From Deltaproteobacteria bacterium (lineage in GTDB: Bacteria > Desulfobacterota > Desulfobacteria > Desulfobacterales > C00003060): a stretch of 45,545 bases of DNA. The notes under the pieces are model-generated. The model saw nothing but the letters and a program-made list of their open reading frames with translations, was not told the DNA's origin and ran no database searches. Position 1 is the first letter of the stretch; every line of letters begins with the position of its first letter. This document shows, one piece after another, positions 1,468-43,968 of this stretch. The stretch spans positions 1 through 45,545 of the forward strand of contig JAUVJO010000002.1 in the NCBI GenBank assembly GCA_030592345.1. Direction: 5' to 3'. A program made the translations under genes and the position numbers.

Positions 1468-3906
1468 TTATTCTGCAGGAAACACCATGTATCCAACCAC
1501 CTCGGTCGTATGATTTGTTTCAGTGTTGCGGGATTGCTCTTCGTCTATTTGTACATCAACCCCATTGGCATCTTTCATTTTCCAGCGCACATTGGCCGTA
1601 TCGCGCCCGTCGGTCGTCTGCATGTCAGCAAGAAACACCGGAGGGTTTATAAACGACCCAGCGAAAGAAATCGCATGTAAGCCATGAGTTACGACATCCT
1701 GGGTCTTATTTACCGCAAAAGTCATGCCGTCTGTGGTCCCGGAGGAAGCTTCCCATGCAATAACGGATATCTCCTCCATGGCGTGTTCCTGAGCATTTGC
1801 TTCCTGCTCTTGCATCCGGAATTCAAAGCCGTTCGTGGTGATGTTTCTTACCCTGCTGCTGACAGCATCTGATTCGTTAAAGGTGGTGATAGCTGTGATT
1901 ACCACGGGAGGTTCATTAAAGACCTTATCAAAGGATAGTGCCGCAAAGGAGCTTGTATTATTCGTATTAAATCTACCGGCCTCCACCAGGGTCCCGTCCG
2001 CTAAGGTATAGCCGCCAGATTCCATGACAACATAGCTCACCGTCTCTTGGGGATGTGCTCCATCCAGATAACCCCACTCCTGAACACGGATCTCAAAACC
2101 GGACGTACCCGCATTGCGTATCCTGATCACGGCAGGGTCATCGTCATTGGAACTCATCGGCTTTGCAATCACGACCGGATCGAAAAATGCCTGACCAAAG
2201 TCTACCAGCTTCCAATCGTGATCCACCTGGATTTCACCGATTTTCATAAGGGGAAACCCGGGCCTTGACACAGGATCGGACGGGTCAAAGTTGTAATGGA
2301 CCTCAACGCCATCTCCAAGCCCGTCAGCATCCGAATCAAGGTCCAAGAGATTCACCAGGCCGTCACTATCATCGTCGGCATCCCATCCGTCTTCTGTCCA
2401 GAAGTTCACTTCGTCTCCATCATTCATCCCGTCTCCATCAGTATCCGCGACGCTGGGGTCTGTGCCGTAATGATCGAGCTCTTCTATGTTTGACAAACCA
2501 TCGCCATCAGTGTCTGCGGTTGGGTCTATTGGAGAAAACACCATGTACCCTACGACTTCCGTAGTATGCGCTGTTTCGCTGTCGCCGGATTGCTCTTCGG
2601 ACACATTCACATCGACCCGATACAAATCCTTTTCGCCACGGCGCAGATTGGCCGTATTGCTCCCGTCGGTTGTCTGCATGTCAGCAACAAAAACCGGAAC
2701 GTTCATGAACGATTCATTGAAAGAAATCGTATGAGACTGATCAGTTACCACATCCTGGGTCTTATCCACCTCAAAGGCAATACCATCCATAGTTCCGGAG
2801 GAAGTTTCCCATGCGATAACCGATATCTCCTCTGTAGCATGCTCCTGAACATTCGCTTCTTGCTCTTGCATGTAAAACTCAAAGCCGTTCACGCTGATAT
2901 TTCTTACCCTGCCACAGACCGCGTCAGCTTCGTTAAAGGTGGTGATAGCTGTGATTACCACCGGCGGTTCATTGAAGGCTCGATCGAAAGATACTGCCGC
3001 AAATGAGCCTGTATTATTCGTTTCAAACTTACCGGCCTCTACCAGGGTCCCGCCCAAGGTGTAGCTACCGGATTCCATGACAATATAGCTCACAGTCTCT
3101 TCGGAACGTGCTCCGTCCAGATAGTTCCATTCCTGAACACGTATTTCAAAACCGGTCCTGTCCACATCGCGGATCCTGATTACGGCAGGGTCATCATCAT
3201 TGGAGCCGATAGGTTCGGCAACCACGACCGGGGCAAAAAACATCTTATTGAATGCAACCCTCTTCCAATTGTGATCCACACTCGTTTCACCAATCTCCAG
3301 AATGGGAACCTGAGGCATTGACTCAGGATCAGACGGATCAAACCCGTAATGGACTTCTGTACCATCCGCAAAACCGTCATCATCTGCATCCCAATCCAAG
3401 AGATTCACCAAGCCGTCACCATCGTCATCCGCATTCCAGCCGTCTTGCCAAAGGTCCACTTCATCCCCATCATTTATCCCGTCGCCATCCGTATCCCTGT
3501 TGTTGGGGTCTGTACCGTAGACACCTGTTTCATCTTCATCGCAAATCCCGTCGCCGTCAGAATCGACAAACTCAAGCGTACGAGCCACCTCGTTGGAATA
3601 TTCACCCTCATTACCATAAGTATCGTAAGCAGTTGCCGCGAAGTAATACGTGTTGCCACCCTGAAGGTTGGCGACTGTGCATGTAGTTTCGTTACCCACA
3701 TCCATACAAAATTCGTAATCTCCGCTTACATTACCGTAATGGACCTTATAGCCACTGAGGTCTTGCTCGGTATTTTGATTCCAGGCCAGATTCACCTGGG
3801 CTGAATGCGCACTTGCACCAAGCATAAGTATCAGGCCTAACGCTAATACGTAGGGCAATGCCCCTGGTTTGAGAAACCTGGCAAAAACAAACCGTAACGA
3901 TAACAT
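1468..3906 (-). CDS. Secreted 812-aa adhesin-like protein: signal peptide, FN3, then two copies of a module made of TSP3 Ca-binding repeats plus three H-type-lectin-like beta-sandwich sub-repeats
   Basis: The long ORF has an N-terminal hydrophobic signal (LALGLILMLGASAHSAQ). FN3-like segment: VNLAWNQNTEQDLSGYKVHYG...YYFAATAYD. DxDxDG repeats: DSDGDGICDEDE, DTDGDGINDGDE. The sub-repeats take the form PVVITAITTFNEADAVCGRVRNISVNGFEF...EEISVIAWE. The H-lectin assignment is tentative. Confidence 0.9.
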   Translation of the reverse strand: MLSLRFVFARFLKPGALPYVLALGLILMLGASAHSAQVNLAWNQNTEQDLSGYKVHYGNVSGDYEFCMDVGNETTCTVANLQGGNTYYFAATAYDTYGNEGEYSNEVARTLEFVDSDGDGICDEDETGVYGTDPNNRDTDGDGINDGDEVDLWQDGWNADDDGDGLVNLLDWDADDDGFADGTEVHYGFDPSDPESMPQVPILEIGETSVDHNWKRVAFNKMFFAPVVVAEPIGSNDDDPAVIRIRDVDRTGFEIRVQEWNYLDGARSEETVSYIVMESGSYTLGGTLVEAGKFETNNTGSFAAVSFDRAFNEPPVVITAITTFNEADAVCGRVRNISVNGFEFYMQEQEANVQEHATEEISVIAWETSSGTMDGIAFEVDKTQDVVTDQSHTISFNESFMNVPVFVADMQTTDGSNTANLRRGEKDLYRVDVNVSEEQSGDSETAHTTEVVGYMVFSPIDPTADTDGDGLSNIEELDHYGTDPSVADTDGDGMNDGDEVNFWTEDGWDADDDSDGLVNLLDLDSDADGLGDGVEVHYNFDPSDPVSRPGFPLMKIGEIQVDHDWKLVDFGQAFFDPVVIAKPMSSNDDDPAVIRIRNAGTSGFEIRVQEWGYLDGAHPQETVSYVVMESGGYTLADGTLVEAGRFNTNNTSSFAALSFDKVFNEPPVVITAITTFNESDAVSSRVRNITTNGFEFRMQEQEANAQEHAMEEISVIAWEASSGTTDGMTFAVNKTQDVVTHGLHAISFAGSFINPPVFLADMQTTDGRDTANVRWKMKDANGVDVQIDEEQSRNTETNHTTEVVGYMVFPAE
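1471..3582 (-). repeat. Internal tandem duplication, 2 x 1056 nt (352 codons), inside the 812-aa gene
   Basis: Nucleotide anchors recur at exactly +1056: aacaccatgt at 1481 and 2537, and gttaaaggtggtgatagctgtgattaccac at 1876 and 2932. The two protein modules are highly similar by eye. Confidence 0.85.
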
Positions 3907-4188
3907 GATAGTACCTCCTCTGATTTATTATTTTTCCCAGGGGACGCGCACCCCAAAGGAGGTACTATGTCCCGCCCGGCAGCCCTGCTGCCATATCCGT
4001 GTCATGCGGACTTAGGTCAGTAGCTTTGCGCCCCACCCTTTCAAGTGGTTTGCCTTTTTCAAACGGTAAATGTCTCAAAGAGCTTTTCTGGCAAGCGGAT
4101 GATGCAAGATGAGTGCCAATGAAAAAACGACCTGGGGGCGTTACCAATCGATCTTGCTAGTCGAACCAATTTTTGTTACAAAGGGCCC

Positions 4189-6630: not shown

Positions 6631-7326
6631 CTACACCACCCGGAATCTTCGTTTTTCCACCTCATCAATCAAGTCCTTGGATGTGTAAAGCACTACGAAC
6701 TTCTCTTCCAGTTCTTTAACCAGGTCCCTCAACTTATTATCCGGCAGGGCACCACAACGAACGTATACATTCCTGCGCCCCTCTTCAGCGATTTCACGTG
6801 TTGACAGGATACTCACAACACGCCCACCATAGGAGCGAATCACATCACAACACTCTTGGATTGAGCCCGGATAATCCTCGAGACTGAAAGCGAATTGAAT
6901 GCCACCAGTGTACACCCCTGTAATATTGATCAGCACCTTGAAAATGTCAGTCTGGGTGATAATCCCCACCAATATGCCCTTGTTATTGATAACCGGAAGT
7001 GACGAGATCTTGTTCTCAAGCATCAAGATGGCAGCAAATTCCACGGTCTCATCGGCCTTAACATAAACCAGGTCTTTGGTCATGATGTCTTTGATCTTCA
7101 TAGAAGAAAGGAGATAATTCAGTTCGTATACGTCCAAAGTCGTTGCTTTGGACGGTGAAGCATCCTTTAAGTCCCGGTCACTGATAATCCCTATGGGCTC
7201 ACCTTTCTTGTTCACCACAGGCAGGCACCGAATCTTCCTCTCCTTCATGATGATAGAGGCCTTCATCATGGAAGTATCCTCATCTATTGTAATCACATCC
7301 GCAGTCATCCAGCCTTGTATTAGCAT
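6631..7326 (-). CDS. CBS-pair domain protein with a C-terminal ACT-like domain (AcuB-like)
   Basis: 231 aa with two CBS repeats (MTADVITIDEDTSMMKA...RCLPVV and IMTKDLVYVKADETV...SSLPVI). GGGAGG Shine-Dalgarno sequence upstream of ATG 7326. Confidence 0.85.
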   Translation of the reverse strand: MLIQGWMTADVITIDEDTSMMKASIIMKERKIRCLPVVNKKGEPIGIISDRDLKDASPSKATTLDVYELNYLLSSMKIKDIMTKDLVYVKADETVEFAAILMLENKISSLPVINNKGILVGIITQTDIFKVLINITGVYTGGIQFAFSLEDYPGSIQECCDVIRSYGGRVVSILSTREIAEEGRRNVYVRCGALPDNKLRDLVKELEEKFVVLYTSKDLIDEVEKRRFRVV

Positions 7327-7484
7327 GAACGTATCCTCCCTCTCGTCAGCTCAACCGTCATAATGCTGTCGTCCAAACGCCACCGGGCCTGTCCACAAGA
7401 GCACAAAAAGCTTTTTATTGTCAATAATGCGAAACCATTATCTCATTTCAATCAATAAATAAATAGAATAAATTTAAAAGTTCA

Positions 7485-31885: not shown

Positions 31886-34474
31886 TTACATCCTCTTGAA
31901 AACGATCTTCCCCTCATCCACATCGGCAACTATGTTGACACCTTCCCCGAAACGCCCCTGGAGCATCTCCATAGCCAGCGGGTTTTCAATGTGTTTCTGG
32001 ATGGCCCGCTTCAGGGGGCGAGCCCCGTACGTTGGGTCGAAGCCTTCTCGTGCCAAAAGGGCCTTGGCTGCATCCGAAAGCTCCAGGGTGATGTGCTGGT
32101 CTTCAAGCCTTTTCTTCACGCTTCTGAGCTGGATATCCACAATGGCACTGAGCTGCTCTGGTGCCAGATTGTGGAAGATGATGATGTCATCGATCCGGTT
32201 TAGAAACTCTGGTTTGAAACTGGCCTGTAAGGCATCCATGACACGCTTTTCCATCTCGTCTCGCTCATTTGCACCCAGCTCATGGATCCAATGGCTTCCC
32301 ACGTTGGAGGTCATGATGATGATGGTGTTCTTGAAATCAACGGTTCGGCCATGACCGTCGGTCATGCGGCCATCATCTAAGATCTGCAAGAGCACATTGA
32401 AAACCTCGGGGTGGGCCTTTTCGATCTCGTCAAAGAGGACCACTGAGTACGGGCGACGTCTGACCGACTCGGTGAGATACCCACCCTCCTCGTAACCCAC
32501 ATAGCCCGGCGGGGCCCCGATGAGGCGCGAGACCGAGTGCTTTTCCATATATTCAGACATGTCCACACGGACCATGGCCTGCTCGTCGTCAAAAATAAAC
32601 TCGGCCAGGGCCTTGGCAAGCTCGGTTTTACCCACGCCAGTGGGTCCCATGAAAATAAACGAGCCAATGGGCCGGTTAGGATCCTGCAACCCAGAACGTG
32701 CCCGCCTCACCGCATTAGATACGGCCACAATCGGCTCGTCCTGGCCCACCACCCGTTTTGAGAGCCGTTCTTCCATATGAACAAGCTTTTCCCGCTCACC
32801 TTCCATCATCCTGGAGACAGGGATCCCCGTCCACCTGGAGACCACCTCGGCCACGTCCTCTGCGTCCACCTCTTCCTTGAGCATCTTGCGGCCGGACTGT
32901 AGTTCGGAAAGTCTCTCATTGGCCTCTTCCAGGCGTTTCTTAAGATCGCTTGACACCCCGTAACGAAGCTCTGCGGCCCTGGCAAGATTTCCCTCGCGCT
33001 CGGCCTGCTGGGCCTCAACGCCGACGCGCTCGAGATCTTCTTTCACCTTGCGAATCGTTTGGATCGCCTCTTTTTCATTCTGCCAGTGTGCCTTCATCTC
33101 GTGGCTTTTCTCCTGCATAGACCCGAGGTCTTTTTCGAGTTTTTCCAACCGCTCCTTTGATGCCTTGTCTGTCTCTTTTTTCAGGGCCTCGCGCTCGATC
33201 TCGACCTGGACGATCTTGCGCTCCACCTCGTCAATCTCGGCAGGCATGCTGTCGATCTCGATCCTGAGCCTTGAGGCCGACTCGTCTATGAGATCAATGG
33301 CCTTATCCGGCAGGAATCGATCGGATATGTACCGCTGTGACAGTGTGGCTGCCGCCACAATGGCGGAATCCTTGATCCTGACCCCGTGATGGACCTCGTA
33401 TTTCTCTTTCAAGCCTCGCAAGATGGAAATCGTGTCTTCCACCGTAGGTTCTTGAACAAGCACAGGCTGAAAACGCCGCTCCAGGGCAGCATCCTTTTCC
33501 ACGTATTTGCGGTACTCGTTTATCGTAGTGGCCCCTACGCACCGGAGGGTGCCGCGAGCCAGGGCCGGCTTTAGCATGTTTGATGCATCTACAGAGCCCT
33601 CAGCAGCCCCGGCCCCGACCATGGTGTGAAGCTCATCAATGAACATAATTATTTCGCCCTCGGCATCCTCCACTTCTTTTAACACTGCCTTAAGACGGTC
33701 TTCAAATTCGCCACGATATTTTGCCCCTGCCACCAGGGTACCCATATCAAGGGCAACCAGACGCCTGTTCTTGATCGTCTCAGGCACGTCGCCGTTTACG
33801 ATACGCTGGGCCAGTCCTTCCACAATGGCGGTCTTGCCAACGCCAGGCTCGCCAATGAGGACCGGGTTGTTTTTGGTGCGCCGGGAAAGGACCTGTACGA
33901 CACGGCGGATCTCCTCGTCCCTGCCGATGACCGGGTCTATCTTTCCGAGGCGGGCGAGGTCGGTCAGGTCCCTGCCGAACTTCTGCAGGGCTTGATATTT
34001 CTCCTCAGGGTTGGGATCAGTAATTCGCTGTGTGCCCCTTATATTCACCAGGACCTTTAAAATCGTGTCGCGGTTCACCCCGGCACTGGCCAGGATGCGG
34101 GCGGCCTCTGTTTCTTTCCGATCTGTTATGGCCACAAGGATGTGTTCTATGCTCACATATTCATCCTTCAGCTTGGCCGCTTCGGCAAAAGCACCATCAA
34201 GCACCCTCTTGGTTGTCGGAGAGACATGCACCTCTCCCATGCCCCCCCCACTCACTTTAGGCGTCTTGTCAAGGCTCTGAGACACTTCCTGAAGGACCGA
34301 CTCAGGGGATGCACCCAGTTTCTGGAGAATGGACCGGGCAATCCCCTCTGGCTGCTCCAGCATAATCTTCAACAGATGCTCTGGCTCTATTTGCTGATGC
34401 CCCAATTGACTTGCTGAGGTCTGGGCACCTTGAATCAGTTCCTGAGATTTTATGGTAAATTTATCAAAGCGCAT
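31886..34474 (-). CDS. clpB: Chaperone/disaggregase ClpB
   Basis: 862 aa from ATG 34474 (AAAGGAGAAAG Shine-Dalgarno sequence). Two AAA+ modules ([17 protein letters not shown]) and a long middle coiled coil. Confidence 0.95.
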
Positions 34475-34875
34475 GGCTTTCTCCTTTGCCTTTTTCCATA
34501 AATCGCCGTTGGTTCTAACTTCGGCCAATATATTGAACCACGAAGGACACGAAGGGGCACGAAGGGGCCTATTTCACAAATAATTCTTCGTGTTCTTCAA
34601 AAAATAAGCATCGGGCATCTATTGTCAAACCTCACCAAGAAAGCGCACAAATGTCTCTGGACAAACCAGCCCCTGTTTTTTCTCGACATCGTGGACTACT
34701 CTGATATACTCAGCATGCTCTGTCCCCTGGAGAAAGCATAGAGTGCTTCATTTCACCATAATTCCTGCAACCGGCAATACACCTCAGCCCTCTCACCCAA
34801 AGAATGGGGGAAAGGGAGATATGAGCAAGGACTAGCTTGCAGGAGGAGAGTTTGGCCTCCGTTCACGGGGGGGCT

Positions 34876-36873
34876 ATGCCTATGATGCAATATCTTCTCA
34901 TTCTGTTGGCTCTCATGTTCTCATTGTTAAATGGTTGTGCACTGCAACCAGGCCCTGTTTGTGTAAAGAATGGAAAAATCTATGGCACGACAAGCGGAAT
35001 CTTTCGAAGCCAGTGGGATGATTACTATGAGCGCGCTCTTTCCTATATGGAAGGGGAGTGTTATCCGGCGGCCCTCTGTGACCTGAATGAAGCTTTAAAA
35101 CAGAGGTTCAGGGATCAGTGGATGGCACGAACCTATGGGATTCATTTCATTGATTACTTTCCCCACCGGGAAAAAGGCCTGATCCATTATTTGACGGGTG
35201 ATTATGATGCTGCCAAATTAGAACTGGAGATCTCCCTGCAACATGAACTATCTGCAAAAGCCTTTTTCTACCTCGACAAGGTCCGCAAACGCATCATGGA
35301 ACAGGAAAAACACGTCGTATCCGTTCCTCGCCTTATAGTTAAGCTCCCATCCGGTAGATCTGAAGGATCTGATGAAGTATGGACTAGAGATGACCCTGTT
35401 ATTATTTCGGGAATAGCAAAAGACGAACAACATATCTCGGAGATTGTCCTGGCAGGAAGACCTGTTTTCATAGAGGTCTCTGCGAAGCGTGTGGAGTTCA
35501 GGGAGGATTTAAAGCTGACTCAGGGCAGACATGAGATCGATATAACGGCCCGAAACCTTTTGGGCGGTACTGCAAAAAGTAAGATCATCATACATGTTGA
35601 CAGAACAGGCCCACTTATCATGCTGGAAAAATTCGATCCGGATGTTGGGATAGATGGATATATTTATGACGAATCCGGTCTCATATCCCTCGTTGTGGAC
35701 GGAGAACCGGTGTTTGTCCCAAAGGGAAAGGAAGTGGCTTTTACTGTGCCCATAAGGCCTGGTATCAAAAGCGTGACCCTTTTGGCGACGGATAAACTGG
35801 GGAATCAAACAAAGGCCCGGGCAAACGCAGGCATGTCGGCCCACAGCCCATATCCGCTACTGCTGGCACAAAACTTAGTGGACCTTGCAACGTCTGCCGG
35901 GCAATCTCCCCTGGCCCTTCTGGGTTCCAAGATCACCCGAAAACCTGAAATCACGCTGAGTGGATGGCCGGATCAAGAGACTGCGTTCTTAGAAAGGATA
36001 TATATTGACGGACAGGTAAGAGGTCAAAGCAATATAGAAGAGCTGATCATAGACAACATGCCAGTTAGCCAGCGGGCAGGCCGCATCATATTCTTCAATC
36101 ACCTCATTACGCTGAAAGAAGGGAAAAATACGATCAGAATCAGGGCCAGGGATGAGTCAGCCAACACAAGCATAAAAGAGATCTGCATTACACGGCGCAT
36201 TCCCAGGGTATTTCAACTGGAACAGCGCTACAGCCTTGCCATGTATCCTTTTGACAATACATATCTGACCGCTGAGCCGGGACTGTTCCAATATCTTTTC
36301 TTAAGGAATCTTGCAGACCGGAATCGCTTTCAGATTATGGTAAGGAAAAAACTAAAAAAGATCCTGCATGAACAGAAACTTGACCTTGGCAGTAAATCCC
36401 TGCCTCAGGAAGTAAAACCACCCCTTTCCACGTTTTTAGGGACTATTTACGAAACAAGAAACGGGATTGAGATTGTTACACGCCTTATTGATAATAAAAC
36501 GTCCAAGATACTGGCCGTTAAGGATGTCTACAACGATTCTAAAGATCGTACCGCATTAACGTCCCTTGCAGACAAGCTGGCTGAAAAATTCCACAGGGAG
36601 TTTCCCTTGATAGACGGCATTATCACTCAAAACACAGAAAAAAGGCTTATTACAGACTTTGGAGAAGAGAAACTAAGGATGGGATGGCCCTTAATCGTGT
36701 ATCGTGAAGAGGAGCCTGGACGCGGTCTTATCACAGGCAGTATACTGGGCTCTGATACGGAAATCATCGCACATGCTTGCATTGATCAGTTGATGAAGGG
36801 AAAATATGGGGCCACGCTTGTAAACGATCAAGAACTTGAAGTCAGAATAGGGGACAGAGTGATAACTCAATGA
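34876..36873 (+). CDS. Large lipoprotein: TPR-like N-terminal region, Ig-like repeats and a C-terminal CsgG/LpoB/FlgT-like module
   Basis: Lipobox ...FSLLNGC. Ig-like pattern ISGIAKDEQHISEIVLAGRPV...LTQGRHEIDITARNLLG. C-terminus RYSLAMYPFDNTY...FQIMVRKKLKKILHEQKL...PLIDGIITQ. The start is ambiguous (track TTG 34837, or ATGs at 34876, 34882 and 34885). Confidence 0.8.
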   Translation: MPMMQYLLILLALMFSLLNGCALQPGPVCVKNGKIYGTTSGIFRSQWDDYYERALSYMEGECYPAALCDLNEALKQRFRDQWMARTYGIHFIDYFPHREKGLIHYLTGDYDAAKLELEISLQHELSAKAFFYLDKVRKRIMEQEKHVVSVPRLIVKLPSGRSEGSDEVWTRDDPVIISGIAKDEQHISEIVLAGRPVFIEVSAKRVEFREDLKLTQGRHEIDITARNLLGGTAKSKIIIHVDRTGPLIMLEKFDPDVGIDGYIYDESGLISLVVDGEPVFVPKGKEVAFTVPIRPGIKSVTLLATDKLGNQTKARANAGMSAHSPYPLLLAQNLVDLATSAGQSPLALLGSKITRKPEITLSGWPDQETAFLERIYIDGQVRGQSNIEELIIDNMPVSQRAGRIIFFNHLITLKEGKNTIRIRARDESANTSIKEICITRRIPRVFQLEQRYSLAMYPFDNTYLTAEPGLFQYLFLRNLADRNRFQIMVRKKLKKILHEQKLDLGSKSLPQEVKPPLSTFLGTIYETRNGIEIVTRLIDNKTSKILAVKDVYNDSKDRTALTSLADKLAEKFHREFPLIDGIITQNTEKRLITDFGEEKLRMGWPLIVYREEEPGRGLITGSILGSDTEIIAHACIDQLMKGKYGATLVNDQELEVRIGDRVITQ

Positions 36874-37472
36874 ATAGACTCTCTCCTGAAGAAGAACGGC
36901 AACTCCTTTACGAATGCATAATCAGTGGCAAGAAGCATAAACTGGTTCAGCAATACTGGAACCTGGTGTACCATACTGTTCGGAAAACATTCACCGTCAA
37001 ACACGTCCCCTTTACTCAGGAGGACATAGAAGATCTTCGGAATGAAGTATTTGTACAGCTTTTTGATAAGGGATGTTGGCGATTGAGGCAGTACAGAGAG
37101 GAACTCGGCCATGGGCTTGCAGGATGGATCACGTTGATTGCCAACCGGACCGTGCTGAATTATCTCAGGAAAAGAGGCTTTGACAGCCTGTCATGGCAGA
37201 ACACCAGGGTTCCGATTGAAGAAATACTTGACCTGAAGCAGGAAAAGAACAGTTTAGAAGTCATGGAAGAGAGGCGTCTCATTCAAGATGCTATGGAAAA
37301 ACTCCCTTCACGAGACCGGTTGGTTCTAAAGCTCCATTATTATCATGAACTATCTTTGCTAGACGTTGCTTCTGCTATCCACAGAACTGCCGGCGCTACC
37401 TATACGATCAAGTCGAGAGCGATCAAGCGACTAAAGGCGCTGATTAACGTAAGCTCCAAAAGTGGTATATAA
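36870..37472 (+). CDS. ECF-type RNA polymerase sigma-70 family factor
   Basis: Region 2 (EDLRNEVFVQLF...GWITLIANRTVLNYLRKR) and region 4 (LPSRDRLVLKLHYYHELSLLDVASAI...YTIKSRAIKRLKAL). Its ATG overlaps the lipoprotein stop (ATGA, 36870-36873). Confidence 0.85.
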   Translation: MNRLSPEEERQLLYECIISGKKHKLVQQYWNLVYHTVRKTFTVKHVPFTQEDIEDLRNEVFVQLFDKGCWRLRQYREELGHGLAGWITLIANRTVLNYLRKRGFDSLSWQNTRVPIEEILDLKQEKNSLEVMEERRLIQDAMEKLPSRDRLVLKLHYYHELSLLDVASAIHRTAGATYTIKSRAIKRLKALINVSSKSGI

Positions 37473-37528
37473 AGAAATTTTGTTTGAAAATCCCGTTTTC
37501 TGTGTATTCATATTAAAAAGGGATCATC

Positions 37529-38158
37529 ATGAAATCACGATGTATTGAGATAGCAGTGCTTGCCAAGTATATCGAGGGCCGTCTTTCTGATAAAGACAGG
37601 GACAGGATTGAGGAACATCTATCAGAGTGTGATACATGCCTGGAGGAGTTTGTGATTGCAAACACCCTTCTTAAGGACCATGATTTGATCGAATGTGAGC
37701 CCGTGTCGGAAGAGGTTGCCCTGTCTGCCTTGAAAAGCTTGAGCATTCCAAAAGAATTAAAGAAATTCTACGCCTGGATCACAAAGGTATTAGTCCCTGA
37801 TTCAGCAGGGCAACCCGCCTTTGCCACTGTCCGGAAGCCAGATGCAGCATCATCCATGGATTATATCAGCATTAAAAAGGATATGAATGATCTGCAGGCA
37901 GAGATGTATATTGAAAAAACACAAGATAATAAAGTCGGCATCCGGGTTAGAGTGCTCAAGGACAATATAAGCGCAAGGAATGTCAGGCTCACTTTGATAC
38001 GGCAGGGAGGAGGGATTGTGTCACGTCTTTTAAAAGGCGATTATGTGCTTTTTGAGGACCTTCCCTTTGGCTCTTATCGCTTTGTTGTTGAACAGGATGC
38101 ATTGGAAAAGGGAGAGTACCTTTTTGAAATCAATGAGGCAGGTCTCAATGAAGAATAA
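37529..38158 (+). CDS. Putative anti-sigma factor (N-terminal zf-HC2) with no obvious TM helix and a C-terminal beta-sandwich-like domain
   Basis: CIEIAVLAKYIEGRLSDKDRDRIEEHLSECDTCLEEF (Hx3Cx2C). I see no hydrophobic stretch of 15 or more residues in its 209 aa. It sits directly downstream of the ECF sigma gene. Confidence 0.7.
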   Translation: MKSRCIEIAVLAKYIEGRLSDKDRDRIEEHLSECDTCLEEFVIANTLLKDHDLIECEPVSEEVALSALKSLSIPKELKKFYAWITKVLVPDSAGQPAFATVRKPDAASSMDYISIKKDMNDLQAEMYIEKTQDNKVGIRVRVLKDNISARNVRLTLIRQGGGIVSRLLKGDYVLFEDLPFGSYRFVVEQDALEKGEYLFEINEAGLNEE

Positions 38159-38159
38159 G

Positions 38160-40205
38160 ATGGCCCGGACTCTCTGTCTTGAGGCCACCCTGGAAAAGGG
38201 CCGTCTTAAGATCAGCATCCACAAACCGGATGATGTGATCTGGTCTTATGAGGATATTCCAGCCCCTATGGACAGGATCGAGACACGCTGCCGCAAAATG
38301 ATAGAGACCTTGAACAGAGCCACCGGTGAGGGCTCTACCTGTGGCTCTGACGTATTGACAAAGCTCAAAGCAGTGGGCCGCATGCTGTCCGACGAGTTAT
38401 TGACACAGGACATCAAAAAAGATCTCAAAAAAACCCGCGCCAATTACTTGATCTTGAGACTTGATGATCATCTGGTTCATATTCCATGGGAATTGCTCTG
38501 TGTTGGCGAGGGATTTCTCTGCCAGCGTTTCAACATGGGCCGATTGGTCAGGACCCGGCAGAAAACAGCACAGAGCAGTCATCGGAACTTGAGTAGACCG
38601 TTAAAGATGTGGATATTGTCTAATCCCAGCGGTGATCTGGCCAGCGCCGGCCTGGAAGGGCTTGAGATTTGCCGGTGCATGGATCGGATGAATCAGGAAA
38701 AAACCGTTGTTGACGCTTCTCTTGATTCTGACGTAACACACGATGAAATTAGAGAGAACATAAGGAACTATGATTTTGTCCACTTTGCAGGCCATGCTGA
38801 TTATGATTCGCAAAACCCGGGAGAAAGCGGATGGAAACTGGCGGGCGGTAATCTTACGGCCCGTGACATTTATAAGATGGCCGGCGGTTCGGCCATGCCC
38901 GCTCTTGTTTTTTCCAATGCATGTCAATCCGCCCGCACAGAGGCGTGGAAATGGAAAAAAAATGTTAAGGATGACTCCTTCGGGCTGGCCAATGCCTTTA
39001 TGCTTGCAGGTGTGAGACATTACGTGGGGACCTTCTGGGAGATATTGGATGAGCCGAGTAGTCGTTTTGCCTTTGAGTTTTATGAACACCTGCTTTCCGG
39101 CAGAACCGTTGGCGAAGCTGTTAGACTCTCCAGAGCGGTGTTGATCCGGGAATACGGTCCTGATTTCATTGGCTGGGCAAGCTATCTCCTGTATGGAGAC
39201 CCAACACTCGGTTATTTTGATCAAAACGAGGAGACCGAAGATCTGACAAAGCCAGAGCCCCCTGCCAGCCTAGATCCGGCAAACATCCATACAAGGGGAA
39301 AATGGTTCGGCTCTCATGGGAACATACCGAAATCAAAAGAGAAGCGGCATTGGTGGGCGGCTTCTCTGGTGATCCTTGGGTTGGTCTTTGGTGTGATGAC
39401 GGGCTACTATGTATACAAGCCGGATTTTTCCGGGCCGCCTACAGATTCAGAGACCCTTACAATCCTTCAAGAAGAGGCCGACAAAAAACGAGAGCGAATA
39501 GACCGGTTGTTCAAGGAGTTGGAGATCATTGCAGCATCGCCTGATGCCTTGGCTTATGATGAAGCGCCATCCGATGCTTGGACTTCCGGGCACTTAACCC
39601 TTGCAATGGATTTTGATTCACAAAGATGCTTCTTACACCGGGGAAAAGAAAAGCTCATTGCCTCGGTCATTGAGACCCAGATACTTGAGCACACCCGGGT
39701 TACATTGCTGGAGCGAATATCACTCGATATAATACTGGAAGAGCTAAAGCGGGCTAATTCCAAATTGGTGGCCCCGAAGAACAGGTTGCTGCCGGACCTG
39801 CTGACTGCAAAGCTTATCCTCTTTCTCGAAGTGGACCTTTCCGATGCGCAGCCCTTTGTCTTAATGCATCTGGCAGACACAAAAAAGGGGAGCGTTGTTG
39901 ACGTTCTGATTGAACCATTGGAGACCGCTCAACCTGTGTTAGCCCAGAAAAAAAAGTTATCCGAAAACCTTTTGAAAAAGCTGAACAATCTCTATCCGCT
40001 CAGGGGCAGGATTTCAGGAATAACAGGTAAAGCGATCAGGCTCAATATTGGAAGTGAGGCAGGTGTCACAATTGGTCAGCGGTTCAAGGTCGCTGATAAA
40101 GATTTAACCCTGGAAGTCGTCTCCATCCAACCGGACACAAGCACTGCCAGAGCGGAAAAGGGAGGATTGATCCTGGAAAAAGAATGGCGGGTAGAGGCAA
40201 TATGA
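38160..40205 (+). CDS. CHAT-domain (caspase-fold) protease with one TM helix and a C-terminal extracytoplasmic CsgG/FlgT-like module
   Basis: CHAT pattern LILRLDDHLVHIPWELL, catalytic-type His in VHFAGHA and Cys in LVFSNACQS, then ...GVRHYVGTFWEILD. TM helix WWAASLVILGLVFGVMTGYYVY. C-terminus LTLAMDFDS...LLERISLDIILEELK...PLRGRISGITGKAIRLNIGSEAGV. ATG 38160 is 1 nt after the anti-sigma stop. Confidence 0.85.
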   Translation: MARTLCLEATLEKGRLKISIHKPDDVIWSYEDIPAPMDRIETRCRKMIETLNRATGEGSTCGSDVLTKLKAVGRMLSDELLTQDIKKDLKKTRANYLILRLDDHLVHIPWELLCVGEGFLCQRFNMGRLVRTRQKTAQSSHRNLSRPLKMWILSNPSGDLASAGLEGLEICRCMDRMNQEKTVVDASLDSDVTHDEIRENIRNYDFVHFAGHADYDSQNPGESGWKLAGGNLTARDIYKMAGGSAMPALVFSNACQSARTEAWKWKKNVKDDSFGLANAFMLAGVRHYVGTFWEILDEPSSRFAFEFYEHLLSGRTVGEAVRLSRAVLIREYGPDFIGWASYLLYGDPTLGYFDQNEETEDLTKPEPPASLDPANIHTRGKWFGSHGNIPKSKEKRHWWAASLVILGLVFGVMTGYYVYKPDFSGPPTDSETLTILQEEADKKRERIDRLFKELEIIAASPDALAYDEAPSDAWTSGHLTLAMDFDSQRCFLHRGKEKLIASVIETQILEHTRVTLLERISLDIILEELKRANSKLVAPKNRLLPDLLTAKLILFLEVDLSDAQPFVLMHLADTKKGSVVDVLIEPLETAQPVLAQKKKLSENLLKKLNNLYPLRGRISGITGKAIRLNIGSEAGVTIGQRFKVADKDLTLEVVSIQPDTSTARAEKGGLILEKEWRVEAI

Positions 40206-40400
40206 TTGAACGGCCTGGAAGTTCTACAACTCACCGCAATTATAGATGATCTGAAAATCTATAGGGAAAAGGGGCTTGATAAGTCAATACGACGAAAAGC
40301 GCGCGCTGTTAACTAAATTTACAGAAACAGGGTATATCTGTATACTATCTTGACAATGGGCATGAACCTTCTTCGATTTTACAACGTATCTGGACCGCCG

Positions 40401-40426
40401 TTTAGAAAGAGAAATATATTTCTAAA
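40401..40426 (+). promoter_or_regulatory. Palindrome; candidate upstream activator site for the sigma-54 promoter
   Basis: tttagaaa-gagaaatata-tttctaaa contains the perfect 14-bp palindrome agaaatatatttct (40410-40423). Its centre is about 63 nt upstream of the -24 GG. Confidence 0.3.
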
Positions 40427-40477
40427 TCAATATATTATAGTCTTTCATCCGCAACAGCATCCCTCCTTTTTTCACCC

Positions 40478-40492
40478 TGGCACAATGCTTGC
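40478..40492 (+). promoter_or_regulatory. Sigma-54 (-24/-12) promoter
   Basis: TGGCACaatgcTTGC matches the consensus TGGCAC-N5-TTGC with correct GG-N10-GC spacing. It lies 215 nt upstream of the OMP gene on the same strand. Confidence 0.6.
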
Positions 40493-40573
40493 GTAATAGA
40501 CTTTTCAGCAAAACAAATCAGAAAATCAAACAACAAAGAACAAGTAATATTAGTGCCCTTCGGGAGGGCTTTT

Positions 40574-40629
40574 AGCTGTTAAGCTATTAAGCTATTAAGC
40601 TATTGAGCTATTGAGCTATTGAGCTGCTC
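40574..40629. repeat. Seven tandem 8-nt units (agctatta/agctattg) in the OMP gene leader
   Basis: agctgtta agctatta agctatta agctattg agctattg agctattg agctgctc. Confidence 0.95.
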
Positions 40630-40706
40630 GACTTATGTTATCTTATCAGCTTAATATCTTATCAGCTATGAGCTTATTTCTAGCTTCCTGCTGAGGAGGT
40701 GCAGCA

Positions 40707-42068
40707 ATGCAAAGGCATTTCTTTACTTTGAGTTTCTTGGTTATCCTTTGGCCTCTCCAGTTGAATTTTGTCTTTGCAGGTGGTGAGTATGTCCAAATCG
40801 CCTCATCTCCCAACCCTGTTGGCTCAGGAGCAAGGGCGCTGGGCATGGGCGGCGCGTTCATAGCAGTAGCCGACGATGCTACTGCAGCTTCCTGGAATCC
40901 GGGAGGTCTTATTCAATTGAAAAGGCCGGAAATATCTGTTGTGGGTAACTGGTTTCATCGAACGGAAGATAACGAGTTTGGAGACAATCCCGAAGCCAGC
41001 GGATCGCAGACCGTATCCGGGCAGGACATCAACTACCTCAGTATGGCCTATCCCCTCACTCTCTTCAATCGAAACATGATCGTTTCCCTGAACTATCAGC
41101 ATCTTTACGATTTCACACGCGAGTGGGGTCTTTCGTTTGCATTTACAAGCAAGCATAATGTTGGTGCCATATCAACGCGAAAGGAAAAAGTGGATTACCA
41201 GCAGAAAGGAGGCCTATCTGCTCTTGGTCTTGCCTATTGCATTCAGATTATTCCACAGCTTTCCTTTGGTTTTACACTAAACATCTGGGATGATGACATA
41301 ACCAGGAATAGGTGGCAGGAAAAGACCCACTTCAAAAGTTCAGAAACCGTTGAAGTACCAAGGCCTCCCCCTATGCCCCCTTTCAAACATACTAATGAAT
41401 TTCAATGCGACTGTATGCAGGAGTATTCATTCAGCGGTTTTAACACCAATATAGGCATTTCGTGGCGCGCCACTGATAAGTTAACGGTGGGGCTGGTCTT
41501 TAAGTCGCCTTTTACTGCAGATCTGAAGCATGAAACCACGACTGAAATCATTGAAAACAACAGCCCGAAAATCAGTACGAAAACAAGTCAAGATGAAAAA
41601 CTGGACATGCCTATGTCATATGGCGCTGGACTATCATACCGGTTTTCAGACAAGTTTACTATAGCGGCAGATATCTATAGGACCGAATGGCAGCATTTTG
41701 TCCTCACAGATTCAGATGGGTACGAGAAATATCCTATGACCGGGAAGTCTGTCAACGAATCTAATATAGATCCCACGTATCAGGTTCGACTCGGGGCAGA
41801 GTATCTGTTCATTAATCCGAAATCGCGCTATGTCATTCCTATCAGGTGCGGTCTGTTTTACGACCCTGCCCCGGCCGATGGAAGTCCTGATGATTATTAT
41901 GGCTTCAGCCTCGGCTCCGGTATTGGAATCGGGAGGTATGTCTTTGATGTCGCCTTTCAGTATCGGTTTGGCAATGATGTCGGCGATTCAATGGTTCAAA
42001 ATTATGATAATTTTTCCCAGGATGTGGACGAATATATGGTCTATTCATCATTGATTATCCATTTTTGA
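40707..42068 (+). CDS. Outer-membrane beta-barrel protein (FadL/TodX- or PorV-like)
   Basis: Signal peptide. GARALGMGGAFIAVADDATAASWNPGGL is the signature N-terminal motif of these barrels. Alternating beta-strand pattern with a terminal ...SSLIIHF. GAGGAGG Shine-Dalgarno sequence. Confidence 0.8.
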   Translation: MQRHFFTLSFLVILWPLQLNFVFAGGEYVQIASSPNPVGSGARALGMGGAFIAVADDATAASWNPGGLIQLKRPEISVVGNWFHRTEDNEFGDNPEASGSQTVSGQDINYLSMAYPLTLFNRNMIVSLNYQHLYDFTREWGLSFAFTSKHNVGAISTRKEKVDYQQKGGLSALGLAYCIQIIPQLSFGFTLNIWDDDITRNRWQEKTHFKSSETVEVPRPPPMPPFKHTNEFQCDCMQEYSFSGFNTNIGISWRATDKLTVGLVFKSPFTADLKHETTTEIIENNSPKISTKTSQDEKLDMPMSYGAGLSYRFSDKFTIAADIYRTEWQHFVLTDSDGYEKYPMTGKSVNESNIDPTYQVRLGAEYLFINPKSRYVIPIRCGLFYDPAPADGSPDDYYGFSLGSGIGIGRYVFDVAFQYRFGNDVGDSMVQNYDNFSQDVDEYMVYSSLIIHF

Positions 42069-42107
42069 CTAACGTGTAAGAAAGAAGCCTTCCCTGTGTA
42101 TTAGTAT
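42062..42107 (+). promoter_or_regulatory. Conserved box A (tttttgactaacgtgtaagaaa) plus downstream TAGTAT
   Basis: The 22-nt box at 42062-42083 overlaps the OMP stop codon. TAGTAT at 42102-42107. The next gene starts at 42168. Confidence 0.5.
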
Positions 42108-42167
42108 GGTAAGGGGGCTGGAAATTGAAAATGGGAACTCGAAAAAGCTAATAGGAGGTAATTTATT

Positions 42168-42878
42168 ATGAAAAGAATTACAATGGTTTTTGTCTGGTGC
42201 ATTATCTATTTGTTCTTGGTCCTGTTGAATCTAGGATTCACAGAAGACAAACACGCAAAATGCGCTGAAGATTGCAATCGGGATTTTCAGGTCGTTTTTC
42301 CCAAAGGACACTTTGTAGATCTCGACGGTAATCCTCCTCTGGTTTTGTCTTGGTATGACCCTCAAACTCAATTGAAAGATCCTGATGCTTACTTTGGGGT
42401 TAATCAGAGCTATAAGGTGTCGATCTCCGAAGATGAGTTTTTTGAGGAACTAATTTGTGTAGAGTGGATCTCGAATAAATCCGTCTGGGTGCTAAGCGAC
42501 TGGATCGTAAAGGAAATAGGTCTTGAGCGTGGAAGAATATATTATTGGAAGGCGCAGAAAGTCAGTCAAAGTCAAGGTTGTGTAGTATCGACGGATACGG
42601 GCTCATTTGTTGATGACTCACATATTATGGTTGGGTGGAATGTTTATATTTGGGGTGCAATATGTGATGACACTGTGGTGCAAGTGTATTCGCACACAGG
42701 TCCATGTGAGAACTCAACCGAGCTTCTAGCTGAATTTATACCATATGGGTGTTCGTGTGATTTCTGTTTATATAGTGGGTTTCTCCCTCCCAGAAAATCC
42801 TACTGCGTCCATTATCGAGACGAATGGAAGACTTTTTATGGGTCCGAGGTGATCTGTGATTTTTGGCCGTGTGAATGA
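42168..42878 (+). CDS. Secreted cysteine-rich hypothetical protein (236 aa)
   Basis: Signal peptide MKRITMVFVWCIIYLFLVLLNLG. 12 Cys in the mature part. AGGAGG Shine-Dalgarno sequence 8 nt upstream. I recognise no family. Confidence 0.7.
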   Translation: MKRITMVFVWCIIYLFLVLLNLGFTEDKHAKCAEDCNRDFQVVFPKGHFVDLDGNPPLVLSWYDPQTQLKDPDAYFGVNQSYKVSISEDEFFEELICVEWISNKSVWVLSDWIVKEIGLERGRIYYWKAQKVSQSQGCVVSTDTGSFVDDSHIMVGWNVYIWGAICDDTVVQVYSHTGPCENSTELLAEFIPYGCSCDFCLYSGFLPPRKSYCVHYRDEWKTFYGSEVICDFWPCE

Positions 42879-43076
42879 AACTTATTGAAAGAAACAAAGC
42901 GGGTGCGCTCATCATTTCAGCCAGAATGTGTTGACGACGGACAAAGGCCAAACTATAGGGGCACATTATGCTGTGCCCCTGTGGCCTTATTTGGCATCAA
43001 CAAAGGTTGCTCACCCAACACCCATCCTTTTTCCGAATCCGTCTCCCTTTTTGCCCAACAATGCCTGTCTACGATT

Positions 43077-43115
43077 GGATAGAGATATGCCCTCCCAAAG
43101 GGCATATCTCTATCC
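43077..43115 (+). terminator. Strong hairpin (16-bp stem, 7-nt loop), terminator-like, downstream of the 236-aa gene
   Basis: ggatagagatatgccc-tcccaaa-gggcatatctctatcc. It is followed by accgttttgaacctttt, which is only a weak T-tract. Confidence 0.45.
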
Positions 43116-43174
43116 ACCGTTTTGAACCTTTTGTCCCATCCTGACACCTGATCCTGTTTTCCCTCCTGATAATT

Positions 43175-43224
43175 TTTTTGACTGACGTGTAAGAAAAGAG
43201 GACTCTCTCGGGTATTCTTAGAAT
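43175..43224 (+). promoter_or_regulatory. Conserved box B (tttttgactgacgtgtaagaaa) plus downstream TAGAAT
   Basis: Box at 43175-43196. TAGAAT at 43219-43224. Confidence 0.5.
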
Positions 43225-43614
43225 AAAAGGAAGAGATTGAAACTGTCCACTTAACGGGTATGAAATGCCACTATTGCTTGCTCAAAGTAAGATATCAAAC
43301 TTAACAGAAAATTCTTTGGAGAATTAGCTTGGTCGGAGGCAGAGAATAAGTACCCGCCAGTTTAGACAGGAGATGACACCGATGTTTTCCCGCAATCAAT
43401 GGCTCAAGAAGCAAAGCAAGCACAATACCTTTATCCGGCACCGCCGTTCTGGCACTTAAACCCGTTGAAGGCCGGATTTCCTGAAGAAGGAAAGCTATCA
43501 ACTGTCTTCTTGTCCGAACGGCGCGTGAAGGAAGGGGAGCGTTTTTTTACTTCATGAAGTGCTTTACACGAGTAGCTATAAAAACAATTTTATCATCTAT
43601 TAATGGAGGATACA

Positions 43615-43968
43615 ATGATGTCAAAAAAACTCTTTATTGGTTTTGTCTCGATTATTGCGGTAGTAATGTTTATCTGTGCTCCTGGCTATTCTGAAACCAT
43701 GACTTTCCCCTTGGAGGAAACGGATTCAGAAATGATTCCTTTCCCCGAGGAAGGCTTTTTCCAGTCAGTAGACGAACTGAGTGAAACGACGGACGGGGAC
43801 TGCCGTGAAATTGGCAAGTTGTGTATCGAACGTAAATGCGGGTGTGATGGCGCAGATCACCATACGTACCGCAAATATATTAAAACATCTTATTGCGAGG
43901 GCTCGCCGCCTTACCTAAAAGTGGAGATATACGGGGTATGTGAGCATACGGGATCTTGTGCGCAGTGA
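43615..43968 (+). CDS. Small secreted protein: signal peptide, acidic region and a Cys-rich C-terminal domain (117 aa)
   Basis: GGAGG lies 5 nt upstream of ATG 43615. MMSKKLFIGFVSIIAVVMFICAPGYS, then an acidic stretch (EETDSEMIPFPEE...DELSETTDGD), then 7 Cys in the last 62 aa or so. Confidence 0.65.
   Translation: MMSKKLFIGFVSIIAVVMFICAPGYSETMTFPLEETDSEMIPFPEEGFFQSVDELSETTDGDCREIGKLCIERKCGCDGADHHTYRKYIKTSYCEGSPPYLKVEIYGVCEHTGSCAQ

Follow-up and report, generated by a model that had tools for sequence, protein, structure and literature searches.

An extracytoplasmic function sigma factor, a soluble zinc anti-sigma factor and a membrane CHAT protein form a recurrent gene cassette in Desulfobacterales: a candidate proteolytic route to sigma factor release

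Sigma factors of the extracytoplasmic function (ECF) type count among the major signalling systems of bacteria, and many ECF groups have no known route of activation. A locus in a 45,545-nucleotide stretch of the genome of a Deltaproteobacteria bacterium (Desulfobacterales; assembly GCA_030592345.1, contig JAUVJO010000002.1, positions 1 to 45,545 of the forward strand; hereafter the window) raises the question of how such a sigma factor might be freed from an anti-sigma factor with no membrane segment when the adjacent gene encodes a membrane-spanning protein with a caspase-fold domain. Four genes, all on the plus strand, encode in order an outer-membrane lipoprotein of 665 residues (34876-36873), an ECF (group IV) sigma factor of 200 residues (36870-37472), a soluble two-domain zinc-binding anti-sigma factor (ZAS) of 209 residues (37529-38158) and an inner-membrane CHAT protein of 681 residues (38160-40205). 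A first-pass annotation of the sequence had proposed that the CHAT protein cuts the anti-sigma factor. In the reading favoured here, to which we give slightly better than an even chance, an envelope-gated CHAT protease would cleave the anti-sigma factor after Arg102 and thereby free the sigma factor.

The gene layout described at first pass is confirmed by the open reading frames (ORFs) read from the sequence. The lipoprotein stop codon overlaps the start of the sigma factor gene in the tetranucleotide ATGA at 36870-36873, and the anti-sigma stop codon (TAA, 38156-38158) is followed after a gap of one nucleotide by the CHAT start codon at 38160, the junction reading TAA-G-ATG (38156-38162). 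An alternative start for the lipoprotein ORF is a TTG at 34837. The motifs HLSECDTC, VHFAGHA, SNACQS and WWAASLVILGLVFGVMTGYYVY are all present in the window proteins.

The phylogenetic distribution of the cassette, which is common among the sulfate reducers of the Desulfobacterales, indicates that this layout is no peculiarity of one genome. A word-indexed search with the CHAT protein returned 1145 homologs, and at least 520 relatives were confirmed among species-representative genomes, mostly from Desulfobacterales with some from Nitrospiraceae and Nitrospinia; the closest among the matches listed is found in a SEEP-SRB2 Desulfobacterales metagenome-assembled genome (MAG; locus L001) at 86% identity. 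The ORFs of 80 loci were searched with the window proteins, and the 59 loci with at least 1.5 kb of sequence upstream of the CHAT gene were assessable for synteny. In 49 of the 59, the gene immediately ahead of the CHAT gene encodes an anti-sigma factor. These include one locus (L015) whose anti-sigma gene (6676-7401) contains masked bases (N); any count made on masked assemblies is a minimum. The sigma factor gene adjoins the anti-sigma gene in related loci. The ten exceptions, which do not possess the sigma/anti-sigma pair, all encode a longer form of the CHAT protein; where a short form has sufficient sequence upstream, the pair accompanies it in every case. In the 49 loci that extend 4 kb or more upstream, the lipoprotein is present in 46, the anti-sigma factor in 40 and the sigma factor in 38, no partner being linked more faithfully than the lipoprotein. 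A gene for an outer-membrane beta-barrel is found in 23 of the 33 loci having enough flank on both sides.

The same association is found in reciprocal fashion. A metagenome scan seeded with the anti-sigma alignment yielded 31 family members, six of them on contigs that end too early to assess, and a CHAT gene lies downstream in all 25 of the assessable loci: in 22 the CHAT match follows directly, and in three (L094, L105 and L111) the next gene begins with the N-terminal cyclase of a long-form CHAT protein. The conserved synteny that the first-pass annotation asked for is thus upheld from both ends. Repetition within genomes is common as well, with the whole four-gene cassette tandemly duplicated in a Desulfobacterales MAG (L059, 1160-11797), at least three cassettes in the complete genome of Desulfonema magnum (L002, L007 and L045), and three or four cassettes each in several MAGs, unlinked in several genomes. 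The arrangement is found in dozens of genomes and metagenome contigs that are independent of one another and is not a product of chance; these observations point to a modular unit.

The CHAT protein has the features of a working protease. Its catalytic domain (residues 71-347, 38370-39200; Pfam PF12770, E value 7e-35) contains a dyad of His212 (38793-38795) and Cys255 (38922-38924) in the contexts HFAGH and SNACQS, and this dyad aligns with the dyad region of Csx29, a CHAT protease of type III-E clustered regularly interspaced short palindromic repeats (CRISPR) systems. His212, Cys255, Glu166, Asp205 and Asp297 are present in 120 of 120 homologs and Glu298 in 115, and the invariance of the dyad suggests that the protease is probably active. 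The AlphaFold2 model of the protein (mean predicted local distance difference test score, pLDDT, 76.9) exhibits a confident CHAT domain at residues 1-350, a disordered segment at 355-398, a transmembrane (TM) helix at 395-418, a long helix at 430-458 and then an alpha/beta domain at the C-terminus. By hydropathy the single TM helix spans residues 398-420 (39351-39419). When searched with Foldseek, the N-terminal part of the model matched human and fungal separase best, together with Csx29 (TPR-CHAT), DdvA and SAVED-CHAT (E values from about 3e-13 to 1e-7). The C-terminal part (residues ~478-681, 39591-40202) matched FlgT, the TolB N-domain, PelC and LpoB, and homologs contain Pfam CsgG and LpoB domains.

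The protein is best placed with its N-terminus inside and its C-terminus outside the inner membrane, a topology predicted mainly by the logic of its domains. It has no signal peptide, and a domain of 400 to more than 600 residues precedes the sole TM helix; paralogs have an ATP-dependent cyclase fused at the N-terminus, and the C-terminal domain is a member of periplasmic families. The first hydrophobic peak falls about 145-150 residues past the catalytic Cys in most of the 120 homologs. The missing signal peptide, single TM helix and His and Cys contexts reported at first pass are thereby reproduced by Pfam, hydropathy and the homolog alignment.

The two middle genes of the cassette encode a recognizable regulatory pair. 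The sigma factor consists of the sigma2 and sigma4 domains only (Pfam Sigma70_r2, E value 2.5e-5; Sigma70_r4, 5e-9; and Sigma70_r4_2) and scores 77 bits against the sigma70-ECF model TIGR02937, for which the cutoff is 42.9; no specific NCBIfam model that would name a subfamily reached its cutoff. The anti-sigma factor matches zf-HC2 (E value 4e-7), and its N-terminus matches RslA, RsiW and ChrR, with a weak match to the RsrA model. Its zinc ligands Cys5, His30, Cys34 and Cys37 are near-invariant in the family, and the H-x3-C-x2-C motif with an upstream Cys is that of a class I ZAS. The word-indexed search found 12 homologous proteins, while exhaustive HMMER searching found 728 representatives at E values up to 1e-10, and a length of about 200-260 residues is kept throughout the best 150 HMMER matches. 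No hydrophobic segment exists in the window protein, the top 19-residue Kyte-Doolittle window being 0.65, and a TM helix was found in none of about 220 family members. Its AlphaFold2 model contains a three-helix bundle (residues 8-51), low-confidence helices to residue 88, a stretch with pLDDT below 50 (84-110) and a confident beta-sandwich (112-208). A fold search with this model gave generic immunoglobulin (Ig)/fibronectin type III (FN3) matches only, with no functional clue for the C-terminal domain, and a weak match to ChrR (E value 0.07). From its adjacency and homology, the anti-sigma factor presumably binds and inhibits the cognate sigma factor. All the domain assignments made at first pass for the sigma, anti-sigma and CHAT proteins were thus recovered with Pfam; the findings named at first pass as counting against its proposal, a TM helix in the anti-sigma factor, loss of the catalytic dyad and loss of synteny, were each looked for, and none was found.

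The predicted disordered linker between the two anti-sigma domains offers a candidate cleavage site. While the rest of this linker is variable and gappy, it contains an island with the consensus [A/S]-[P/A/T]-[V/I]-R-[G/S], represented in the window protein by A99-T-V-R102-K103 (37823-37837, plus strand). Arg102 is found in 57 of 58 homologs derived from the loci; among representatives clustered at 50% identity it is found in 159 of 161, with V or I at P2 in 145 and G or S at P1' in 127. This conservation equals that of the zinc ligands.

Separase is Arg-specific, and members of the gingipain family are specific for Arg or Lys. Besides the separase fold matches, Pfam C50 (separase) is barely under its cutoff in the window CHAT protein, and Peptidase_C25 (the gingipain family) is above the Pfam cutoff in two homologs (L060 and L064). 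The acidic S1 pockets of Arg-specific clan CD enzymes are built from the alpha1 and L5 regions (PMC4357240), and it is in these regions that Glu166 and the pair Asp297/Glu298 fall, making them candidate S1-pocket residues. The conserved Arg islands and the invariant acidic residues Glu166 and Asp297 together fit a CHAT protease with a predicted specificity for Arg at P1. The proposal made at first pass, that the CHAT protein cuts the soluble anti-sigma factor, is partly supported, and it is sharpened by the near-invariant linker Arg and by a similar island in the cyclase-fused paralogs; the cut itself stays a prediction.

Those paralogs are revealing of how the protease may be coupled to more than one output. 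Short forms of about 590-740 residues consist of CHAT, TM and periplasmic domains. Long forms of about 900-1100 residues possess in addition an N-terminal class III adenylate/guanylate cyclase and often periplasmic tetratricopeptide repeats (TPRs) ahead of the CsgG/LpoB-like domain; in one such protein (P0024) the cyclase occupies residues 35-193, CHAT 302-576, TPRs 659-796 and CsgG/LpoB 868-948. A cyclase fusion is present in all seven Pfam-scanned loci without the sigma/anti-sigma pair, namely six of the ten exceptions and one further locus (L023). Since short forms are paired with an anti-sigma factor and the scanned loci without the pair are cyclase-fused, no protease is without a candidate output, be it in trans or in cis. 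The cyclase-CHAT linker is variable except for an island E-P-x-[V/L]-R-[A/T/S], whose Arg is missing from no more than one or two of the long forms listed, and the P-x-[V/L]-R island occurs also in loci without the sigma/anti-sigma pair. Short forms start just past this point of the long forms, so that a short form resembles a long form cut at P-x-[V/L]-R. The cyclase of the fusion could be gated by proteolysis, and the fusion suggests that the same protease has a second output, interchangeable with the first. The five-part architecture of cyclase, CHAT, TM, TPR and CsgG/LpoB, at about 1050 residues, is shared by about 70 proteins besides P0024, and L019, L022 and L040 are among the loci that encode it.

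What signal might such a protease receive? The lipoprotein possesses a signal peptide and a lipobox by hydropathy, with the lipobox Cys21 (codon 34936-34938) conserved among homologs having their N-terminus present. Its Pfam matches are weak (TPR, Big_13, Glucodextran_B and CsgG) and correspond to N-terminal TPRs, Ig-like domains in mid-protein and a C-terminal CsgG/LpoB/FlgT-like domain. This last domain is homologous to the periplasmic domain of the CHAT protein (hhalign probability 99.5%, E value 9.6e-23, 188 columns). Of the related folds, those of CsgG and PelC assemble into rings; LpoB and FlgT serve as adaptors in the periplasm. Contact between the lipoprotein and the CHAT protein across the periplasm would be a reasonable way of gating the protease. 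The participation of the lipoprotein, raised at first pass as one possibility, fits the homology of its C-terminal domain to the CHAT periplasmic tail.

The cassette is often joined by a fifth member, the FadL/PorV/BamG-like outer-membrane beta-barrel, encoded in the window at 40707-42068 (plus strand). It matches Pfam Toluene_X (E value 2e-16) and, below their cutoffs, the NCBIfam models BamG and PorV_fam, and is of the FadL/TodX type. Its gene lies upstream or downstream of the cassette in related loci. In the window it is preceded at a distance of about 215 nucleotides by a sigma-54-type -24/-12 element, TGGCACAATGCTTGC (40478-40492, plus strand), which is conserved in the L001 ortholog, and at closer range by an 8-nucleotide tandem repeat, AGCTATTA, in 6.5 copies (40574-40625). 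The corresponding CHAT-barrel spacer of L001 (12047-13600) measures about 1.5 kb and is bordered by similar TTAGC/AGCT-rich repeats. The pattern TGGCAC-N5-TTGC has just two matches in the window, where 0.1 would be expected by chance; the second (4104-4118, minus strand) lies about 200 nucleotides upstream of a minus-strand gene (1468-3906) for an 812-residue H-type lectin/TSP3/FN3 protein.

Taken together, these features can be arranged into a pathway in which we infer the occurrence of cleavage, its site, the direction of its effect on the sigma factor and the nature of the signal. The outer-membrane lipoprotein, the barrel that usually accompanies it, or both would sense an envelope signal, and the lipoprotein would pass it on to the inner-membrane CHAT protein by way of the latter's periplasmic domain, a homolog of the lipoprotein's C-terminal domain. 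The cytoplasmic caspase-fold domain would then be switched on, possibly by induced proximity or oligomerisation, and would cut the anti-sigma factor in its disordered linker past Arg102 (A-T-V-R102), splitting the sigma-binding N-terminal domain from the beta-sandwich. Housekeeping proteases might then remove the N-terminal fragment, as in the case of RseA and Csx30, and leave the ECF sigma factor free. In long forms a parallel cut at the P-x-[V/L]-R linker would affect the fused class III adenylate cyclase.

Several observations weigh against this pathway. A cut between the two anti-sigma domains has no evident route to sigma factor release, and the same is true of Csx30. The window anti-sigma factor has K at P1' rather than the usual G or S, and the V-R core shared by the two linkers amounts to two residues, for which coincidence or a structural feature is a possible explanation. 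The positive-inside bias around the TM helix is weak (3.55 versus 2.48 K+R over the 120 homologs), and the CHCC zinc site fits redox control also. An ECF-type promoter was sought with bipartite k-mers upstream of 51 lipoprotein genes, and in the regions upstream of the lipoprotein and barrel genes compared between the window and L001; both searches gave AT-rich noise only. Finally, the barrel gene may have its own sigma-54-type promoter and be transcribed separately from the four-gene cassette.

The fit of the zinc site to redox control leads to the alternative that survives best, one that we nonetheless regard as unlikely, in which the anti-sigma factor controls itself, either by oxidation of its CHCC site in the manner of RsrA and RslA or by sensing through its C-terminal domain in the manner of ChrR, and the CHAT protein, lipoprotein and barrel are members of the regulon or effectors. 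The near-invariant H-x3-C-x2-C motif and N-terminal Cys would serve such control, as would the resemblance of the N-terminal domain to RslA, RsiW, ChrR and, weakly, RsrA; ChrR is a precedent for a soluble two-domain ZAS, ECF sigma factors commonly transcribe neighbouring genes, and gene context alone cannot separate regulators from targets (PMC7826278). However, self-control leaves unexplained both an Arg island conserved like the zinc ligands and the similar island in the cyclase-CHAT linkers, and gives no account of why every short form has an anti-sigma partner while forms without one have a fused cyclase. The C-terminal domain is moreover a generic Ig/FN3 sandwich and not a cupin, and a ChrR-type anti-sigma factor, with its cupin-like sensor, was ruled out on this ground.

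Ranking next, and improbable in our judgement, is a non-proteolytic or reversed relationship. The linker Arg may act as a pseudosubstrate like that of a securin or a prodomain, with the anti-sigma factor inhibiting or tethering the protease and the real substrates lying elsewhere, for example the sigma factor or housekeeping proteins; or the CHAT protein may sequester the anti-sigma factor at the membrane in the style of partner switching. Separase is kept inactive by a pseudosubstrate and securin structures are among the fold matches, the gingipain prodomain puts an Arg into the S1 pocket (PMC4357240), and a conserved Arg would equally fit S1 binding without turnover. There is precedent too for another substrate, as PCaspase cuts the sigma factor itself in a type III-B system (bioRxiv 10.1101/2023.06.23.546230). 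A small P1' residue (G or S in 127 of 161) within a disordered linker is nevertheless typical of a true cleavage site, and the linker between sigma2 and sigma4 contains no conserved island comparable to that of the anti-sigma factor. The invariant dyad, though silent on the substrate, argues for catalysis.

An anti-phage or abortive-infection module with CHAT as its cell-killing effector, as in CHAT systems linked to CRISPR or to cyclic-oligonucleotide-based antiphage signalling systems (CBASS), is highly improbable and was rejected on genomic context and PADLOC results: CHAT proteases act as effectors in systems of types III-E and III-B (PMC10028731; bioRxiv 10.1101/2023.06.23.546230), DdvA/DdvS governs a defence island (PMC11506125) and the CHAT region has a weak PADLOC match to BovA (E value 3.7e-4, 17.6 bits), but the neighbours are housekeeping genes without cas or CBASS genes in the window, five other proteins scanned have no PADLOC match, three or four paralogous cassettes per genome are a pattern typical of signalling families, and the envelope components (lipoprotein and barrel) are the most conserved partners.

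Proteolytic release through a CHAT protease, the reading preferred here, has relatives among characterised systems, and the statement of the first-pass annotation that no such mechanism was known has to be withdrawn. In type III-E CRISPR systems Csx29 (TPR-CHAT) cleaves soluble Csx30, relieving inhibition of the ECF-like CASP-sigma (PMC10028731); the DdvA protein of Myxococcus xanthus has been characterised structurally (PMC11506125), and CHAT neighbours of ECF54 sigma factors have been noted (PMC8999054). The likeness to the type III-E Craspase lies in a cytoplasmic CHAT protease and a soluble inhibitor of an ECF-type sigma factor that lacks a TM segment, with cleavage predicted here. Csx29 is among the best fold matches of the window CHAT protein and the only sequence match to its catalytic region in the PDB. 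Unlike that protein, however, Csx29 possesses N-terminal TPRs and neither a TM helix nor a periplasmic domain, and is switched on by Cas7-11 binding target RNA rather than by the envelope signal proposed here. It cuts Csx30 at a different type of site, and in the alignment it has R-S at the position of Asp297-Glu298, which suggests a different P1 specificity. The NCBIfam Csx29 model scores the window protein at 16.6 bits against a cutoff of 300, and a search of the anti-sigma profile against the PDB, in which Csx30 is represented by 8eey, gave no Csx30 match at E values up to 1.

The DdvA protein is an anti-sigma factor with a periplasmic TPR-CHAT region proposed to self-cleave before RseP acts (PMC11506125; PDB 8rot). 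As in DdvA-DdvS, a CHCC zinc domain would hold an ECF sigma factor and a CHAT domain belonging to the same signalling unit is proposed to set off proteolytic release, and DdvA was matched by Foldseek at an E value of 1.6e-8. DdvA is a single polypeptide, composed of ZAS, TM and periplasmic TPR-CHAT with an incomplete active site, whereas the cassette has a soluble anti-sigma factor and a separate membrane protein with cytoplasmic CHAT and a periplasmic CsgG/LpoB-like domain. A DdvA-type architecture was ruled out on account of the separate genes for ZAS and CHAT, the anti-sigma factor without a TM segment and the cytoplasmic CHAT domain.

In regulated intramembrane proteolysis (DegS/RseP acting on RseA for sigmaE; RsiW), as would be the case here, an envelope signal leads to proteolysis of a class I anti-sigma factor and a free ECF sigma factor. 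The cassette differs in that it contains neither a membrane-spanning anti-sigma factor nor site-1/site-2 protease genes, the protease crossing the membrane instead of the substrate; the lack of a TM helix in the anti-sigma family excludes an RseA/RsiW type. In the CRISPR-associated CalpL-CalpT-CalpS system, as outlined in bioRxiv 10.1101/2023.06.23.546230, a SAVED-Lon protease activated by cyclic oligoadenylate acts with an anti-sigma factor and a sigma factor. A dedicated, signal-activated cytoplasmic protease cutting a sigma-bound soluble anti-sigma-like protein would be common to that system and to the cassette, although CalpL is Lon-type. A sigma factor and its partner are the targets cut in a SAVED-CHAT/PCaspase cascade (bioRxiv 10.1101/2023.06.23.546230).

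RsrA, RslA and ChrR share the ZAS N-terminal domain with H-x3-C-x2-C; RsrA and ChrR likewise possess no TM segment, and ChrR has a second, C-terminal domain. The signals for these proteins are oxidants or singlet oxygen, and no protease gene is dedicated to them, in contrast to the Ig/FN3 C-terminal domain, conserved Arg linker and obligatory CHAT neighbour of the present family. ECF54 neighbourhoods contain CHAT, subtilase or carboxypeptidase genes, and proteolytic control has been proposed for them (PMC8999054); ECF54 is described as actinobacterial and without an anti-sigma factor, whereas the cassette includes one and is found in Desulfobacterales, Nitrospirota and Nitrospinota. Thus CHAT-driven sigma factor release is already known, and no known system combines the parts of the present layout: a soluble ZAS anti-sigma factor with an Ig-like C-terminal domain and Arg linker, a membrane CHAT protein with a periplasmic CsgG/LpoB-like domain, a lipoprotein sharing that domain, a barrel and cyclase-fused paralogs. 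No description of this layout was found in the full-text literature searched, the coverage of which is incomplete.

The surroundings of the cassette are those of an ordinary chromosome and not of a defence island, with genes for ClpB, an M48 peptidase, TrkH, PFOR, RACo, succinyl-CoA synthetase and PBP1A. Neither cas nor CBASS genes were found in the 45,545 nucleotides and no ORF is of the size of Cas7-11, the largest being PFOR at 1186 residues. A promoter and terminator consensus scan of 34400-43200 gave counts no higher than those in shuffled sequence. Downstream of the barrel gene lie genes for two Cys-rich predicted secreted proteins, of 236 residues (42168-42878, plus strand) and 121 residues (43603-43968, plus strand). 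The larger has no match in Pfam, NCBIfam or PADLOC, and a homolog is present at the same position in L001 (E value 1e-33).

A broader reading, to which we incline only tentatively and at somewhat less than an even chance, is that the CHAT proteins constitute a distinct class of trans-envelope transducer, a 'receptor-caspase': a ligand- or contact-gated, membrane-spanning caspase-fold protease with interchangeable outputs cut at [V/I/L]-R. These outputs would be an ECF sigma factor, reached in trans through a soluble anti-sigma factor, and a class III adenylate cyclase in cis. In Desulfobacterales, SEEP-SRB2-type syntrophs and filamentous Desulfonema among them, the family would have expanded so that single genomes hold several paralogous cassettes. 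Proteolytic release in its narrower form makes a single-residue prediction that is directly and cheaply testable, namely cleavage past one conserved Arg that is blocked by R102A or C255A, and a cultured host with a complete genome and three cassettes exists in Desulfonema magnum. The system could also supply orthogonal protease-gated transcription switches.

If the cassette operates as proposed, the textbook logic of ECF activation would be inverted, with a protease that spans the membrane and an anti-sigma factor that serves as a soluble, cleavable adaptor, and the CHAT-to-sigma switch of type III-E CRISPR systems would be one case of a wider principle that serves envelope sensing as well. 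The cyclase-fused paralogs suggest that caspase-like proteolysis is linked to cyclic AMP signalling also, and the size of this uncharacterised family adds to its interest.

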